A DNA stretch of 5,477 nucleotides from a virus: positions 1 through 5,477 of the IMG/VR virus record IMGVR_UViG_3300045988_000249; one strand, written 5' to 3'. Below are positions 80 through 4,856 of this stretch, in pieces. A program made the translations under genes and the position numbers. How positions within the stretch are numbered: position 1 is the first letter of the stretch; each line of letters starts with the position of its first letter. Under the pieces are notes generated by a model. It was not told the origin of the DNA and ran no database searches. It was given only the letters and a program-made list of their open reading frames with translations.

Positions 80-1729
80 ATGCAAAGACCTCGCTCGAAA
101 TTCGACCGCGGACACCAGCTGCTGACGACCATCAACGAGGGCGAGCTAGTGCCTATCTATATGGACGAAGTGCTCCCGGGTGATACGGCAAGAATCCAGT
201 TAAACGGCCTTATTCGCATGAGTACGCCTATCTATCCCATCATGGATAACTGCTACATGGACACATACTTTTTCTTTGTGCCGTTACGTCTCTTGTGGGA
301 GCACTTTGAAAATATGTTCGGCGAGAACGACACAAATTACTGGGCAGAAAAAACAGAGTATTCTACTCCGACCTGCTCAATCGGCGGCACAAGCGGACTC
401 GCAAACGGCAGCATTGGCGACTACCTCGGATTACCGACCGAAGTAACCAACACACTGAAGGTGAACGCACTCCCGGCGCGAGCCTATGCGATGGTCTACA
501 ACGAGTGGTTTCGAGATGAAAATCTCGAAGCGCCGTTAATGCTGGGCTACAAAAAGTCGGATGACGGCGGGACGAACGCAGACGCCGGCAAAGAGACGTC
601 AAACGCAAACGCAATCGACAAAACGATCAACACCAACGAAGCAACGCTGTACGCGATGAAACCGGCGAAGGCAGGCAAATTTCACGACTACTTCACGAGC
701 TGTCTGCCTTCGCCTCTGAAAAATCAAGAGCCGGTCAACATAGGAATCACAGGAACAGCACCAGTCAAGGGCTACGACGCCAAAGGAACAAATCTAGCAA
801 ACTACGACTTAACCTTAGGATACTACTTACACAACGGCTCTTCTCAAGAACCGTCAATGAGCAACGACCAAAGCAACGACAAAAATGCAATACGAGTAGC
901 GGGAAGAAACGGCGACAGCGAAACGGAGGGAGCATACTACTATTTACAAGCAGACCTCTCCGAAGTAAATGCTATCAGCATCAACGACCTGAGGCAAGTA
1001 ATCGCACTACAGCACATATTCGAGGCCGATGCCAAAAATGGCACGCGCTACCGCGAATTCTTGAGCGGTACGTGGGGGGTGACGAGTCCTGACAGCCGTC
1101 TCCAGATCCCAGAATACATCGGTGGCCAGAGAATCGCTATCAATGTCAATCAGGTCATCCAGACCAGCCAGACGGACACACAGACCGGTCAGGCACTGGG
1201 CAATACGGCAGCATACAGTCTGACGACCTGTAGCAAAAAAATAGTGGACTACGCAGCGACTGAGTACGGATATATCATCGGTCTGGCAGTAGTACGAGTA
1301 GACCACAGCTACCAGCAGGGACTTGCAACCAAGTGGACACGCGGCGGCAGGTTCACGTACTACGACCCGCGACTCGCAGCACTGGGCGAACAGCCGGTAT
1401 ATAACCGCGAAATTTACGCGCAGGGCACAGAGAAAGACGGAGAGATATTCGGCTACCAAGAGTGCTGGGCCGACTACAGATATAAACCGTCTTACGTGAC
1501 CGGCGAAATGCGCTCAAACAGCAAAGCATCTCTGGATGCATGGCACTACGCGGACGACTACGACCAACTTCCGACACTGTCGGCAGAGTGGATTCAGGAA
1601 GGACGAGAAAACATTGACCGCACAATCGCGGTGACAGTAAGTCACCAGTTCCTTTGTGACTTCTGGTTTGAAGAAGAGTGGTGCCGAGAAATGCCTATCT
1701 ACAGCATTCCGGGAATCGAAAGAATTTAA
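80..1729 (+). CDS. VP1: Major capsid protein VP1 (Microviridae F/VP1 family). The 5' end is probably longer than the ATG80 call (see findings).
   Basis: 549-aa ORF. The N-terminal block RSKFDRGH..TT..GELVPIYMDEVLPGDT and the YFFFVPLRLLW motif are hallmark gokushovirus VP1 / phiX F-family motifs. Size is typical. There is no SD before ATG80. Confidence 0.95.
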   Translation: MQRPRSKFDRGHQLLTTINEGELVPIYMDEVLPGDTARIQLNGLIRMSTPIYPIMDNCYMDTYFFFVPLRLLWEHFENMFGENDTNYWAEKTEYSTPTCSIGGTSGLANGSIGDYLGLPTEVTNTLKVNALPARAYAMVYNEWFRDENLEAPLMLGYKKSDDGGTNADAGKETSNANAIDKTINTNEATLYAMKPAKAGKFHDYFTSCLPSPLKNQEPVNIGITGTAPVKGYDAKGTNLANYDLTLGYYLHNGSSQEPSMSNDQSNDKNAIRVAGRNGDSETEGAYYYLQADLSEVNAISINDLRQVIALQHIFEADAKNGTRYREFLSGTWGVTSPDSRLQIPEYIGGQRIAINVNQVIQTSQTDTQTGQALGNTAAYSLTTCSKKIVDYAATEYGYIIGLAVVRVDHSYQQGLATKWTRGGRFTYYDPRLAALGEQPVYNREIYAQGTEKDGEIFGYQECWADYRYKPSYVTGEMRSNSKASLDAWHYADDYDQLPTLSAEWIQEGRENIDRTIAVTVSHQFLCDFWFEEEWCREMPIYSIPGIERI

Positions 1730-1777: not shown

Positions 1778-2635
1778 ATGAGTCTTTTATCATGGATGCC
1801 TTTTGTGATGCAGGGACTTAGTCTGCTGAGCAATGTCATCACAGGTTCAAACAGCTCAAGCGCAACAAGCAGTAACTTCGGCGGGCAGGAGTTCAGCAGC
1901 GGAAACGAAACAACAGCAGGAAGCCTAAGTGCTCCACAGCAAATCGGCTCAACACAAATCGGCACACCGACAGGCTTTGGGACATACAGCAATCAGGGAA
2001 GCGTGACCAATGCGAACATGATGAGCTTTATGAGTTCAATACTCAGCAACTTGGCGAACGCAGGAAGCCAAGCAAGCGCAAAAAAATACAACAGCGCAGA
2101 AGCGGCAGCAGAGCGAGCTTTTGAAAAGGAAATGCGAGGCACAGCATATCAGGACACCGTGAAAGACATGATTGCAGCGGGCATCAATCCGATACTGGCG
2201 GCGAACAACGGAGCAACGGCGACACCATCGGGGGCATCAGCAAGCATAGGAACACAGCGGTATAACCAGCAGAGCGCACAAGCGGCATCTGTCGCAGCGA
2301 TGTACGAATACGGCAACAACAGCGCAGAAATAGCGGACAAATACTTAGAGCTGGCGAAAAAGGCCACGAGTGCAAAGCAGTACCACTCGGCAAAAAGCTG
2401 GAATGAGGCAGCGACGACCCTTGCACAATCAAGCGCAAAGCAAGTAGCAGAGTACAGCTACATGGCAAATAAACTCGCGGACGACCTCCTAAACGCAGGA
2501 AAAGACCTCGGCAACGACGTGAGAAAAACTGTTGACGAAGGAGCGAGAAAGTGGAGCGGACACCTGAAGAATGTTCCACTAATGCCAAACGCAGCACCAA
2601 ACTTAAACCCAATGAAAGAGTATACAGGCGATTAA
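1778..2635 (+). CDS. VP2: Minor capsid / DNA pilot protein VP2
   Basis: 285-aa ORF directly after VP1. It has a hydrophobic N-terminus and a Ser/Gly/Ala/Gln-rich low-complexity body. The motif TAYQDTVKDMIAAGINPILA (nt 2141-2200) matches the (S)TAYQR..DMK.AGLNPMLA box I recall in Microviridae VP2/H-like proteins. Confidence 0.85.
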   Translation: MSLLSWMPFVMQGLSLLSNVITGSNSSSATSSNFGGQEFSSGNETTAGSLSAPQQIGSTQIGTPTGFGTYSNQGSVTNANMMSFMSSILSNLANAGSQASAKKYNSAEAAAERAFEKEMRGTAYQDTVKDMIAAGINPILAANNGATATPSGASASIGTQRYNQQSAQAASVAAMYEYGNNSAEIADKYLELAKKATSAKQYHSAKSWNEAATTLAQSSAKQVAEYSYMANKLADDLLNAGKDLGNDVRKTVDEGARKWSGHLKNVPLMPNAAPNLNPMKEYTGD

Positions 2636-2641
2636 ACAAAT

Positions 2642-2674
2642 TGTGGAAAACTTTAGTTTTCAACATTTTCCACA
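2642..2674. repeat. Inverted repeat / hairpin at the start of the VP2-VP4 intergenic region
   Basis: TGTGGAAAA (2642-2650) is the exact reverse complement of TTTTCCACA (2666-2674), giving a 9-bp stem. The 15-nt loop contains one GTTTTCAACA unit. Confidence 0.8.
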
Positions 2675-2820
2675 GAGTTCTCAACAGGAAAAACAACCAT
2701 AGCTGAGGACAAAAACAAGTTTTCAACATTTCAACAAGTTTTCAACAAAAGTTTCAACAAGAAAAGGGGCGATAATTATGCGTATCAAAGCTATAAATTA
2801 GTGTTTTCAACAGTTTCCAC
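2656..2820 (+). repeat. Iteron-like direct repeat array, core GTTTTCAACA
   Basis: Perfect 10-mers start at 2656, 2719, 2738 and 2803. Degenerate copies are GTTCTCAACA at 2677, TTTCAACA at 2729 and GTTTCAACA at 2751. The 18-mer GTTTTCAACA[T/G]TTTCCAC occurs at 2656-2673 and 2803-2820 (17/18 identical). I did not see the core elsewhere in the window. Confidence 0.9.
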
Positions 2821-2821
2821 G

Positions 2822-2840
2822 CTACTACTACTACTACTAC
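2822..2840. repeat. Trinucleotide microsatellite (CTA)6
   Basis: CTACTACTACTACTACTAC is six perfect CTA units plus C, in non-coding DNA between the last iteron and the AT-rich box. Confidence 0.95.
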
Positions 2841-2859
2841 AACAAGTTATATAATAAAG
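2840..2859 (+). promoter_or_regulatory. AT-rich box CAACAAGTTATATAATAAAG: candidate Rep nick site / origin core, or a -10 element (TATAAT 2850-2855)
   Basis: It loosely resembles the phiX174 origin core CAACTTGATATTAATAAC (recalled from memory), sharing CAAC..G..ATAT.AATAA. It contains a perfect TATAAT but has no recognisable -35 at 17 nt. Confidence 0.25.
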
Positions 2860-2939
2860 CGAGCAGAGCAAAACAAAACTAAGGTAAACAGCATCTACGC
2901 GCGCGCACACGCAGCATAAAGAGAAAGGAAGTGTCAACT

Positions 2940-2968
2940 GGCCCAAGATAGACAAGTAGGCTTGGGCC
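2940..2968 (+). promoter_or_regulatory. Hairpin immediately upstream of the VP4 start codon
   Basis: GGCCCAAG (2940-2947) pairs with CTTGGGCC (2961-2968), an 8-bp stem with a 13-nt loop. It ends 7 nt before ATG2976. No SD lies between the hairpin and the ATG. Confidence 0.6.
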
Positions 2969-2975
2969 AGATAAT

Positions 2976-3980
2976 ATGCCATGTACAAATCCAAATGTTT
3001 TTCAGATAAACACGACCAGACCGAAAATGTGGGGAAGTTTAAAAAACCTCAAACGCCAAGATCTAGAAGACACCATCATGGACGGCGTCAAAAAAGGAAA
3101 CCTCGCGCTATTACCCTGTGGACAGTGTGAGTATTGCAGAAAGCAAACAGCCGAACAATGGGCCACAAGAATTGAGCTTGAAGCAAAAAACTGGGAAGAC
3201 GTGATCTTTGTGACAATGACCTATGACGAGGAACACATACCTTATGGAGAAATCCTGAAAGGCTGCCAAAGTATCCAGTCTCAGACGGTAAGTAAAAGAG
3301 ACGTACAACTTTTTATAAAGCGTCTGAGAAAGGCATACAAGAAGCCGATAAAGTACTTCATAGCGGGCGAATACGGAGACAGAACAAAACGACCGCATTA
3401 TCACGGCATTTTTTTCGGATTAAAACCGGAGGATGGACAGTGGTACAAAAACCAGAAAGGCAACTCATACTTCAAAAGCCAGTGGTTAACAAACCTCTGG
3501 GGAAAAGGCTTTGTAGACTTCTCACCAGCGGAACCGGGTTCATACGCGTATGTGGCGCAATACGTCAACAAAAAGGCAATCGGCGCAGAACAGAGCGCAA
3601 AGTACTGGATGCAAGGCAGAGAGCCAGAATTTAGGATCATGTCCAAAGGCATCGGGGAAAAGTATCTTAAAGAGCACATGAACGAAATCCTAAAGACGGA
3701 CAGCATAACATGCGCCGGAGGGCGGCAGAAAAGACCGCCAAGGTACTTTGATAAGCTACTCGATAAGGATACCAGCCAAGACGCTGAGAGCTACTTCAAG
3801 GCCCATTCTGACGAGCTGAGAGAGGTACGAGCCAAGCGAAGGAGAAACGCGCTGCTAAGCCTCGCAAACATTGAGCAAAACACGAGCGTACCTTATTCAA
3901 CGTACCTCGAAATCCAGAAGGAGAAGAACAAACAGAAACAGAAGTGGCGTGAGCCAATAAAGGACCAATCCGGAATCTAG
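2976..3980 (+). CDS. VP4: Replication initiation protein VP4 (HUH rolling-circle endonuclease, phiX gpA family)
   Basis: 334-aa ORF. The N-terminus is MPCTNP...PCGQCEYCR, a Cys cluster typical of gokushovirus VP4. Motif 1 is FVTMTYDEE. The HUH motif is PHYHGIFFG (HYH = nt 3396-3404). The double-tyrosine motif is YVAQYVNKK (nt 3549-3575), compared with YVAKYVNK as I recall it from phiX174 gpA. Confidence 0.94.
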   Translation: MPCTNPNVFQINTTRPKMWGSLKNLKRQDLEDTIMDGVKKGNLALLPCGQCEYCRKQTAEQWATRIELEAKNWEDVIFVTMTYDEEHIPYGEILKGCQSIQSQTVSKRDVQLFIKRLRKAYKKPIKYFIAGEYGDRTKRPHYHGIFFGLKPEDGQWYKNQKGNSYFKSQWLTNLWGKGFVDFSPAEPGSYAYVAQYVNKKAIGAEQSAKYWMQGREPEFRIMSKGIGEKYLKEHMNEILKTDSITCAGGRQKRPPRYFDKLLDKDTSQDAESYFKAHSDELREVRAKRRRNALLSLANIEQNTSVPYSTYLEIQKEKNKQKQKWREPIKDQSGI

Positions 3981-3992
3981 CCTAAACATCAC

Positions 3993-4034
3993 GCCGTCCT
4001 CTCTTCGTCGGCTCACCAGAGCCGAACGGACGGC
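3993..4034 (+). terminator. Compound GC-rich hairpin after VP4 (possible terminator or ssDNA structural/origin element)
   Basis: The outer stem is GCCGTCC (3993-3999) / GGACGGC (4028-4034). The inner stem is TCGGCTC (4008-4014) / GAGCCGA (4019-4025) with the loop ACCA. No T-run follows, so it is not a canonical intrinsic terminator. Confidence 0.45.
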
Positions 4035-4095
4035 CCTAAATGTAAATGCAAGATTTATCTAATCTAAACTTTTTTACAAAAAACCTTGACTTCTT

Positions 4096-4119
4096 CAATA
4101 AAATTATCAATAAAATTAT
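4096..4119. repeat. Perfect tandem duplication of the 12-mer CAATAAAATTAT
   Basis: 4096-4107 equals 4108-4119. It lies in the AT-rich intergenic region just downstream of a TTGACT hexamer (4086-4091). Nearby are TAAATG x2 (4037-4048) and T6-AC-A6 (4070-4083). Confidence 0.9.
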
Positions 4120-4135
4120 GTACACCTTTACAGAA

Positions 4136-4164
4136 TTGACAGCCGGGAATTTGTCTGATAAAAT
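4136..4164 (+). promoter_or_regulatory. Near-consensus sigma70-type promoter with an extended -10
   Basis: TTGACA (4136-4141), a 17-nt spacer ending in TGA (TG at 4156-4157), then TAAAAT (4159-4164). The upstream region is AT-rich. It lies about 30 nt upstream of ATG4194 and is followed by a strong SD. Confidence 0.65.
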
Positions 4165-4193
4165 AAAAACAAAGAATGAAAGGAGGTAACACA

Positions 4194-4310
4194 ATGGCAC
4201 ATCGTAGCGGCGCAGGCCGTGGCGACCAGCGGCGTTTTACGCAGACCGCAAAGCGAACGAAAAACATCAACGTGCGTCCAAAGGTCAGCCGAGGCGGCGT
4301 TCGACTGTAA
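4194..4310 (+). CDS. Small arginine/lysine-rich DNA-binding (packaging) protein, phiX J / gokushovirus ORF8-like. It is not in the supplied ORF track.
   Basis: ATG4194 is preceded by GAAAGGAGGT (4178-4187) at 6-nt spacing. It encodes 38 aa, MAHRSGAGRGDQRRFTQTAKRTKNINVRPKVSRGGVRL*, with about 10 Arg/Lys, 1 His and 1 acidic residue. The C-terminal RGGxRL/F tail resembles ORF8-type proteins as I recall them. Confidence 0.65.
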   Translation: MAHRSGAGRGDQRRFTQTAKRTKNINVRPKVSRGGVRL

Positions 4311-4457: not shown

Positions 4458-4856
4458 GTGCTGCATGAATACAGCCTATTTAATCAGGGCACCCACCGTG
4501 TAAGCCCACATTTCAAAATCAGTGAATTTGCACAAAAAGATGGAAGGTGTGACAAAATACTCATCGACTCAGAACTAGTAGAAGTGCTGGAAGATGTAAG
4601 GACACACTTTAACGCACCTGTGATAATCAACAGTGGCTACAGAACACCGGAATACAACAAAAAAATCGGCGGTACAAAAAACTCGCAGCACACAAAAGGC
4701 ACGGCGGCTGACATTCGAGTAAAAGGAGTCCCGGCTAGTAAGGTGCAGCAGTACCTAAAAAATAAGTACCAGGACAAATACGGAATCGGAAGCTACCGAA
4801 AATTTACGCATATAGACACACGAAAAAAAAGGGCAAGGTGGAAAAATGAAACTTAA
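4458..4856 (+). CDS. Zinc metallopeptidase, Peptidase_M15 (M15_3-like) family; putative peptidoglycan hydrolase / endolysin
   Basis: 132-aa ORF with a GTG start and GAGAGGA upstream. It carries the motifs SGYRTPEYNKKIGG and SQHTKGTAADI (H78 = nt 4689-4691, D85 = nt 4710-4712). It also has GIGSY..FTHIDTR (H118 = nt 4809-4811), which completes the H-x6-D...H zinc triad of the VanY/M15 fold. There is no N-terminal signal peptide or TM segment. Confidence 0.88.
   Translation: MLHEYSLFNQGTHRVSPHFKISEFAQKDGRCDKILIDSELVEVLEDVRTHFNAPVIINSGYRTPEYNKKIGGTKNSQHTKGTAADIRVKGVPASKVQQYLKNKYQDKYGIGSYRKFTHIDTRKKRARWKNET

Follow-up and report, generated by a model that had tools for sequence, protein, structure and literature searches.

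The DNA analysed here (the window, the whole 5,477-nt stretch of IMG/VR virus record IMGVR_UViG_3300045988_000249) is a complete circular gokushovirus genome of 5422 nt followed by a 55-nt terminal overlap, with all of its genes on the plus strand. VP2 ends at position 2635 and VP4, the Rep gene, starts at 2976, and the 340-nt gap between them is non-coding, in agreement with a preliminary description made from the sequence. The same description saw in this gap an organised, origin-like array of direct repeats that could be protein-binding sites, a view that we share; we report here that the array has the layout of a bacterial chromosomal origin, with putative boxes for the host initiator DnaA, DnaA-trios and an adjacent AT-rich stretch. 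The features of the gap and of its two flanks are as follows.

1778-2635, plus strand: VP2 gene.
2642..2686, plus strand: putative DnaA-box cluster I, with one inverted and three direct boxes.
2642-2650, minus strand: inverted box of cluster I, TTTTCCACA.
2657-2665, 2666-2674 and 2678-2686, plus strand: direct boxes of cluster I, TTTTCAACA, TTTTCCACA and TTCTCAACA respectively.
2720..2759, plus strand: putative DnaA-box cluster II, four direct boxes with start spacings of 8, 11 and 12 nt.
2720-2728, 2728-2736, 2739-2747 and 2751-2759, plus strand: boxes of cluster II, TTTTCAACA, ATTTCAACA, TTTTCAACA and GTTTCAACA respectively.
2760..2803, plus strand: AT-rich spacer from cluster II to the unwinding unit, holding GCG-TATCAA-(A/C)GC.
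2804..2821, plus strand: putative tandem DnaA boxes TTTTCAACA and GTTTCCACG, with 2 and 3 mismatches to TTATCCACA.
2822..2839, plus strand: (CTA)6, which makes six perfect DnaA-trios (3'-GAT-5') on the minus strand; the sole such run in the genome.
2840..2858, plus strand: CAACAAGTTATATAATAAA, the proposed duplex unwinding element, a conserved CAACAAGT(T/A)A followed by AT-rich sequence.
2896..2915, no strand assigned: alternating purine-pyrimidine (CG/CA)n tract, 25% A+T.
2931..2970, plus strand: GTGTCAAC followed by a 10-bp stem-loop (stem 2938-2947/2961-2970) with the loop ATAGACAAGTAGG.
2976-3980, plus strand: VP4 gene (Pfam REP_ORF2-G2P, 1.8e-19).

The repeat unit singled out in the preliminary description, the 10-mer GTTTTCAACA, occurs in four perfect copies (starts 2656, 2719, 2738 and 2803) and in two copies with one mismatch (2677 on the plus strand and 2642 on the minus strand). 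All six copies (at most one mismatch) lie inside 2642-2812, against a whole-genome expectation of 0.41, and none of 200 shuffled sequences reached six, which places the reported perfect and degenerate copies far above chance. Shorter copies, TTTCAACA, start at 2729 and 2752, and the core TTC[AC]AC[AG] was found eight times on the plus strand within 2659-2815 and once more on this strand outside that interval, the maximum in 2000 shuffles being three per 200-nt window. Start-to-start spacings within the clusters are 8, 9, 11 and 12 nt, and the 18-mers at 2656 and 2803 are indeed near-identical (94%). In all, three clusters hold ten putative DnaA boxes that follow the Clostridial variant TTTTC(A/C)ACA, and cluster II is the part of the module that is kept most widely across phage clades. 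The spacer that follows it showed no stable fold (z 0.63 for 2760..2803), and its element GCG-TATCAA-(A/C)GC becomes ACG...CGT in other clades.

The unit next to the proposed unwinding element has a bacterial counterpart. In the basal unwinding system (BUS), which was defined in Bacillus subtilis and is predicted in about 85% of bacterial origins, an oligomer that depends on ATP is loaded from two DnaA-bound boxes onto the 3'-GAT-5' trios, and the duplex opens (PMC8287927, PMC6669920, PMC10721633). We compared the window with the rules given for the boxes, the tandem box, the spacer and the trios (PMC8287927). The box TTTTCAACA at 2804-2812 has two mismatches to TTATCCACA, the highest number admitted, and the second box GTTTCCACG at 2813-2821, for which up to four are admitted, has three; it abuts TTTTCAACA, and the upstream box of the pair is the one nearer to the consensus. 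The spacer from the first located box to the first trio may measure 0-16 nt and here measures 9 nt, being the proximal box itself, and the trios, of which at least three are expected as 3'-GAT-5' on the right side and strand, are six in number and all perfect (2822-2839). The (CTA)6 run that forms them had been noted previously. Elsewhere in the gap, the boxes TTTTCCACA at 2666-2674 and 2642-2650 (minus strand) have a single mismatch to TTATCCACA and fit TTWTNCACA exactly. The trio of C. difficile is CACCTACTACTATTACTACTA, given as 5'-CACCTACTACTATTACTACTATGA-3', upstream of the unwinding element (PMC7561715), and the DnaD recognition element of Firmicutes is the strand across from the trios, which has TnnT repeats (PMC10201434); the plus strand of (CTA)6 bears such TnnT repeats. 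The segment 2836-2855 is 80% A+T, the AT-rich stretch measuring about 20 nt in the window and being longer in other clades. Other phage clades read box, GCCC or TCC, then trios, and thus have a 3-4-nt GC cluster at a junction where the window has none.

The same arrangement is found in bacterial chromosomes. A scan of one genome per bacterial species with the pattern TTTTCMAC-N(1-12)-CTACTACTAC returned at least 120 loci, and 73 of those listed lie no more than a few hundred nt from a homologue of dnaA and/or dnaN. Along the strand of the match, 72 of the 73 show the order dnaA, boxes, CTA trios, AT-rich stretch, dnaN (L251 is the exception), and the orientation from box to trio is the same in the window, in the 73 linked loci and in the C. 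difficile trio. Many of the bacterial loci read ...TTATCCAC-TTTTCCACAG-CCC-CTACTACTAC-AT-rich, which is the phage consensus string. The window's own box TTTTCAACA is the trio-proximal box in several Clostridia (L162, L200, L204, L207, L238, L244 and L258), namely Eubacteriales, Acutalibacteraceae, Christensenella and metagenome-assembled genomes (MAGs) of unclassified Clostridia. In the MAG of a Ruminococcus sp. (L248), the spacer between dnaA and dnaN, both confirmed with Pfam, carries on one strand 13 copies of T(T)TCAACA and three of TTTTCCACA, together with five inverted boxes; these boxes are 9-14 nt apart, and the spacer terminates in TTTTCCACAGCCCCTACTACTACTACTAAAATAAATATAC; its terminal string TTTTCCACAGCCCCTACTACTAC is also the consensus of the inverted-module phage clade described below.

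Individual pieces of the window are close to such origins as well. Positions 2804-2844 match the dnaA-dnaN origin of Intestinibacillus (L155, TTTTCCACAGTTTCCACA-(CTA)6), which also has the tandem box form, at 92.7% identity over 41 nt; the part that matches is the window's variant TTTTCAACA-GTTTCCACG-(CTA)6, without a GC cluster. Positions 2656-2686 (box, box, GAG, box) share 96.8% identity over 31 nt with a triple box that immediately precedes dnaA in the MAG of an Oscillospiraceae member (L232), and a Ruminococcus locus (L163) has CTACTACTACAACAATAAATATATA where the window has CAACAAGTTATATAATAAA. The unit TTTTC(A/C)ACA is the DnaA-box variant found in the origins of gut and rumen Clostridia (Ruminococcus, Oscillospiraceae, Intestinibacillus). 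Since the rules on boxes, spacer and trios are followed and real origins are matched, we consider it very probable, on these sequence comparisons, that the repeats are Clostridial-type DnaA boxes, that (CTA)6 forms an array of DnaA-trios and that Oscillospirales are the hosts. A recent wholesale capture of an origin is not supported, as the similarity to host origins is confined to pieces of 31-68 nt. In IMG/VR, the canonical TTATCCAC plus trio string was found in 51 contigs, none of them a microvirus. Among the contigs with a canonical string, L396, L406 and L432 (95-160 kb) and L405, L425 and L442 carry TTATCCACA-TTATCCACAG-CCCC-CTACTACTAC and an AT-rich stretch, with up to nine boxes nearby; these may be origins of phages or of phage-plasmids, or else host sequence that was binned as viral.

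The boxes might instead be sites of another host regulator, such as the sporulation regulator Spo0A, which would tie phage development to the state of the host as in phage phi29. The complement of TTCAACA, TGTTGAA, differs by one base from the 0A box TGTCGAA; at the Bacillus origin, boxes for Spo0A and for DnaA overlap; and many Oscillospirales form spores. However, the repeats lack the CGAA core that is conserved in 0A boxes, the trios play no part in Spo0A binding, and TTTTCAACA occupies the trio-proximal position in several chromosomal origins, where DnaA must nucleate, so that we regard this explanation as very improbable.

The module, about 230 nt long, is present in more than 200 gokushovirus genomes, including GenBank records from several studies. 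Comparison of 400 nt around the gap with GenBank gave 31 matches of 67-90% identity, mostly to window 2721-2861 alone; two Listeria phage records are among these 31 weak blastn matches to the intergenic region, perhaps because of the CTA run or of box-like sequence. In annotated records, the matching piece lies downstream of VP4, on the gene strand in KT264800 and inverted in KT264798 and MG945781. An IMG/VR scan with CTACTACNNCTACAACAAGTTA, combined with the window and related loci, yielded at least 127 microvirus genomes with the motif, in which 841 of 874 TTCAACA heptamers stand within 300 nt upstream of the trio motif in a single orientation. The module is upstream of VP4 and on the gene strand in 27 of these genomes, whose VP4 is 78-100% identical to that of the window; in 95 it is downstream of VP4 and inverted (VP4 31-43% and VP1 36-49% identical to the window's), and in five it is downstream of VP4 on the gene strand. 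The consensus order begins with a cluster of TTTCAACA units ending in TTTTCCACA, a spacer, a second cluster of four units and an AT-rich spacer, and continues with GTTTTCAAC-TTTTCCACAG-CCC-CTACTACTACGACTAC-AACAAGTTA-AT-rich and the (CG/CA)n tract, the junction of box and trios being best conserved. In clades A and B, the (CG/CA)n tract separates the proposed unwinding element from the stem-loop; it is longer in relatives (L006-L016 and the inverted-module genomes) and could adopt Z-DNA or act as a barrier to unwinding. In six close relatives (L002, L006, L009, L012, L014 and L016), about 200 nt are inserted after the AT-rich stretch and before the (CG)n tract, with the strong GC hairpins GGGGCCGTCAAAC..GTTGACGGCCCC and CCCCTAGCGCGGGG, the latter recalling the TAGCG loop of plasmid ssoA origins.

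Further samples, picked by VP1 similarity without regard to the module, agree with this. Among the genomes at 72-83% VP1 identity, almost every one has the module in the forward orientation, the few exceptions being short or truncated contigs, while in the sister clade at 50-55% identity all 33 new genomes lack both the repeats and a CTA/TAG run. In total, the module is missing from 34 sister-clade genomes. The non-coding region of this clade (L300-L334) has no CAAGTA-loop hairpin, and when we looked there for another repeat array we found just long poly-T tracts. Around an inverted-module virus, the module was inverted in 58 of 80 genomes and absent in the other 22. When 209 VP1 proteins were clustered by the unweighted pair group method with arithmetic mean, the window's clade joined the module-less clade before the inverted-module clades. 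No such unit was found in Bdellovibrio phage phiMH2K, Chlamydia phage Chp2 or Spiroplasma phage SpV4.

Base composition at four-fold degenerate sites of the VP1 coding strand is alike in genomes with a forward and with an inverted module (A 0.40, C 0.21-0.22, G 0.25, T 0.13-0.14), a weak test, as codon usage could dominate and mutational and codon-usage effects are inseparable in it. We saw no sign that the module sets the packaged strand, the composition being alike both ways in this weak test and the stem-loop staying on the gene strand. In VP1 of 226 related genomes, the coding strand of module-bearing phages is A-rich (about 0.40) and T-poor (about 0.13) at four-fold sites, the opposite of the T-rich plus strand of phiX174. 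The occurrence of the module in either orientation and in two intergenic regions, with equal strand composition, fits a function on duplex DNA.

This distribution bears on two further explanations. The preliminary description had put forward iterons bound by VP4 at the plus-strand origin, where a nick might lie in CAACAAG/TTA on our reading of the sequence, and the window does have direct repeats beside its rep gene; moreover, the CAACAAGT(T/A)A that is kept after the trios in phages is loosely like the phiX174 origin core CAACTTGATATT. However, the repeat does not co-vary with its cognate Rep, the heptamer TTCAACA being constant across VP4 proteins of 31-100% identity. Neither its position nor its orientation is fixed, the module lying 3' of VP4 and inverted relative to the genes in most carriers without a change in strand composition, and relatives with an orthologous Rep can lack it altogether, as the sister clade, phiMH2K, Chp2 and SpV4 do, all of which have VP4; this is an outcome that the preliminary description had itself named as speaking against its view. 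Unit and layout match host origins, and a separate, strand-locked stem-loop is available as a better Rep target. We also found no conserved 30-bp origin of the phiX174 gpA type, with its core CAACTTGATATTAA, on the plus strand inside rep; the best match and only core-like 14-mer of the window, CAACTTTTTATAAA at 3306-3319 inside VP4 (plus strand), agrees at 11 of 14 positions (3 mismatches), which is at the level of chance, the random expectation being about 0.2 per strand. VP4 iterons are thus an improbable explanation, given that the repeat stays constant across VP4, changes side and strand and is absent from the sister clade and cultured gokushoviruses, and the comparisons point to host DnaA and not the phage Rep as the binding partner. 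Among the roles proposed earlier, primosome loading or a host-factor site comes close to a DnaA origin, and it is the VP4 iterons that are not supported. That the array is functionless, as recently captured host DNA or an assembly chimera, would agree with its high similarity to host origins, but its position is fixed in over 200 independent contigs as well as in the GenBank genomes of several studies, which also speaks against the assembly artefact considered previously, and it is kept in a 5.4-kb genome across clades of about 40% VP1 identity; we consider this explanation scarcely credible.

A hairpin at the left end of the gap, reported as a 9-bp structure at 2642-2674, is present (2642-2650/2666-2674, nine perfect pairs) and weak (dG -6.6 kcal/mol, z -2.4). 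Its stem is the pairing of two TTTTCCACA boxes, and as a conserved structure it was ruled out: its arms pair perfectly in no more than 2 of the 27 clade-A genomes, and neither covariation nor a single compensatory change was seen. Owing to this rarity, the hairpin is best seen, from its sequence, as two convergent DnaA boxes. It nevertheless raises the possibility of a complementary-strand origin on the packaged single strand, where the hairpin would present a double-stranded DnaA box, as in the A-site of R6K and the ABC primosome, and (CTA)6 would offer start sites for a Firmicute-type primase. The stem is exactly TTTTCCACA, and the C. difficile helicase stimulates primase at 5'-CTA (PMC7561715). 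Against this, a hairpin with a DnaA-box stem is not conserved on the packaged strand: to its rarity in clade A is added its absence from the inverted-module clade, in which inverted boxes are rare (0.09 per genome), the gene strand would read TAG and not CTA, and strand composition shows no flip. An origin of this kind is accordingly improbable.

A better candidate for a strand-specific function is a second stem-loop, absent from the preliminary description, at 2938-2970 (ten perfect pairs, dG -11.3, z -4.3), which is stronger than the left hairpin. Of the module carriers, 58 of 59 with the forward and 90 of 113 with the inverted orientation have it, and it keeps to the gene strand even where the module is inverted (854 against 6 hairpin windows). 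Compensatory changes affect four of its ten pairs, a swap of C-G to G-C was seen among aligned relatives, and its loop ATAGACAAGTAGG is conserved. Its equivalent in the distant, inverted-module clades is GTGTCA(A)C followed by a stem with the loop TATCAAGTA, the complement of which (TACTTGATA) has ACTTGATA in common with the phiX174 cleavage site. The stem-loop of both main classes is placed between VP4 and the unwinding side of the module, and in a rare third class the module alone is flipped. It adjoins the DnaA module but is a separate element and, judged from sequence, is a candidate for the VP4 nick site or the complementary (minus)-strand origin, better suited to be a strand-specific origin than the module itself.

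Two smaller elements named previously are present in the window but not conserved in relatives. The AT palindrome ATAATTAT at 2772-2779 is variable among aligned relatives and was dropped as an element. The TATAAT at 2850-2855, which falls within the stretch proposed to unwind, is variable as well, and its reading as a promoter was rejected since the promoter scan gave no -35 partner. For the dif/Xer site, no convincing resemblance was seen by eye, no dedicated search having been made. No small open reading frame covers the module on the plus strand, and that on the minus strand at 2791-2994 spans variable sequence. An Rfam scan of the whole window with E up to 1 gave zero matches, so the module is not a known RNA.

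The want of a promoter bears on the possibility that DnaA or another host factor binds the module and no origin fires, the module being either a sink for DnaA that blocks host initiation or a DnaA-sensing transcription switch. Each genome has ten boxes that are the same as those of host origins, cloned Bacillus DnaA-box regions (incA/B/C) inhibit initiation by titration, and in the window the module is upstream of VP4. Yet titration or transcription control would need boxes alone, while conservation in all clades is highest in the trios, in the GC cluster or the direct junction of box and trios, and in the AT-rich stretch; there is no convincing promoter in or beside the module, which is inverted and 3' of VP4 in most carriers. 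We therefore think such a function unlikely.

The reading that we favour, and judge probable, is that the array is a phage-borne copy or mimic of the host chromosomal origin, at which host DnaA opens the duplex replicative form; the opening is favoured by the orientation independence of the module, by the conserved trios and box-trio junction and by the adjacent AT-rich stretch. From what we observed (the identity of the sequences, their architecture, the match to origins and the distribution among phages) we infer DnaA binding, unwinding and a gain to the phage. Host DnaA-ATP would fill the boxes on the double-stranded replicative form, and the DnaA oligomer would grow from the trio-proximal boxes onto the trio strand, so that the duplex would open at about 2822-2858. 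Host helicase-loading proteins (DnaD, DnaB and DnaI in Firmicutes) could then enter. The phage would thereby gain a start or boost of duplex-form replication, or its maintenance, independent of both VP4 and orientation, and as a side effect many copies of the module may soak up host DnaA.

Several points weigh against such an origin. The AT-rich stretch is short (about 20 nt) and opens with the conserved CAACAAGT, which hints at an additional sequence-specific reader. The box TTTTCAACA differs from TTATCCACA at position 6, which in E. coli is contacted by DnaA, and cultured microviruses such as phiX174 do not need DnaA, just as the sister clade manages without the module. The bacterial scan was seeded with the phage's own motif, so that the sample of hosts is biased, and the host is predicted from origin similarity only. 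Finally, binding without firing, for titration or transcription control, would give the same sequence signature.

A more far-reaching possibility, which we offer tentatively, is that these phages possess two replication systems, a rolling-circle one (VP4 and the strand-locked stem-loop) and a complete DnaA origin of host type. The duplex form would replicate or persist like a minichromosome in Oscillospirales, in a plasmid-like carrier state, and the origin module would be swapped between lineages and tuned to the origin variant of the host. If so, there would be a plasmid-like carrier state in a phage family without integrases, and a route is suggested by which a lytic-looking phage with single-stranded DNA may persist in slow-growing gut bacteria. 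If the DnaA origin itself is real, this would be the first microvirus with a full chromosomal-origin unwinding unit, and abundant human-gut phages would rely on, or interfere with, the host initiator DnaA. The comparison also offers a sequence-based host prediction (Oscillospirales or Ruminococcus-type Clostridia) for clades that come from metagenomes only. It tells a putative duplex origin of host type apart from a strand-locked stem-loop, the likelier of the two to be the Rep or minus-strand origin, whereby the location of the gokushovirus origin becomes testable, and the compact natural origin variants of about 230 nt would be useful for the study of DnaA-trios in Clostridia.

Outside the gap, the genome has the genes VP5 and VP3 on the plus strand, together with the following.

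80-1729, plus strand: VP1 (Pfam Phage_F).
4194-4310, plus strand: gene of a 38-aa basic protein, J-like.
4458-4856, plus strand: peptidase M15 gene.

The nearest GenBank record is the human gut gokushovirus KX513864 (86.5% identity). In the gap between VP1 and VP2, a terminator-like hairpin (GCCGGGC-AAAGAC-CCGGC, then TATTTTT) was found at 1750-1776 (dG -8.5, z -4.3), and a second intergenic region, 3981-4193, has a strong hairpin at 3993-4034 (dG -14.4, z -4.6). The best and only good sigma-70-like promoter of the scanned region, TTGACA-17-TAAAAT with a TG, is at 4136-4164, just upstream of the 38-aa gene.

A full-text literature search found no paper that ties Microviridae or gokushoviruses to DnaA boxes or oriC, and the microvirus genome surveys that we checked do not mention the element, in line with the earlier statement that such an array is undescribed for Microviridae. 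Among known systems, the origins of phiX174 and G4 belong to the same virus family and consist of a 30-bp gpA site inside gene A and of PriA- or primase-dependent minus-strand sites; the stem-loop at 2931-2970 of the window may serve a comparable strand-specific role, but those phages have neither DnaA involvement nor a repeat array. The A-site of R6K and pBR322, at which a DnaA box in a single-stranded hairpin serves the ABC primosome, resembles the left hairpin of the window in its DnaA-box stem; the window's hairpin is, however, not structurally conserved, and the likeness is probably incidental. In iteron plasmids with DnaA boxes (pSC101, P1 oriR, F, RK2 and R6K), a mobile replicon recruits host DnaA by means of boxes that stand next to an AT-rich region and to the site of its own initiator. 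There the repeats are sites of the plasmid Rep and vary in step with it, with only a few DnaA boxes, whereas in the phage module the repeats themselves are the putative DnaA boxes, the trios are complete, and the Rep is a HUH nickase without a sign of repeat binding. The closest likeness is to the BUS of bacterial oriC, with which the module has in common the box pair, its spacing, the orientation from box to trio, the perfect 3'-GAT-5' trios and the AT-rich stretch after them, as well as upstream clusters of boxes in the same orientation at 8-12-nt spacing and a string near-identical to that of Clostridial origins. It differs in residing in a 5.4-kb single-stranded DNA rolling-circle phage and not between dnaA and dnaN, and in its short proposed unwinding stretch, which starts with the phage-conserved CAACAAGT and is followed by the (CG/CA)n tract and the phage-specific stem-loop. 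The BUS is thus known as an element; as far as we can tell, its occurrence as a conserved mobile module in a family of rolling-circle single-stranded DNA phages is new.

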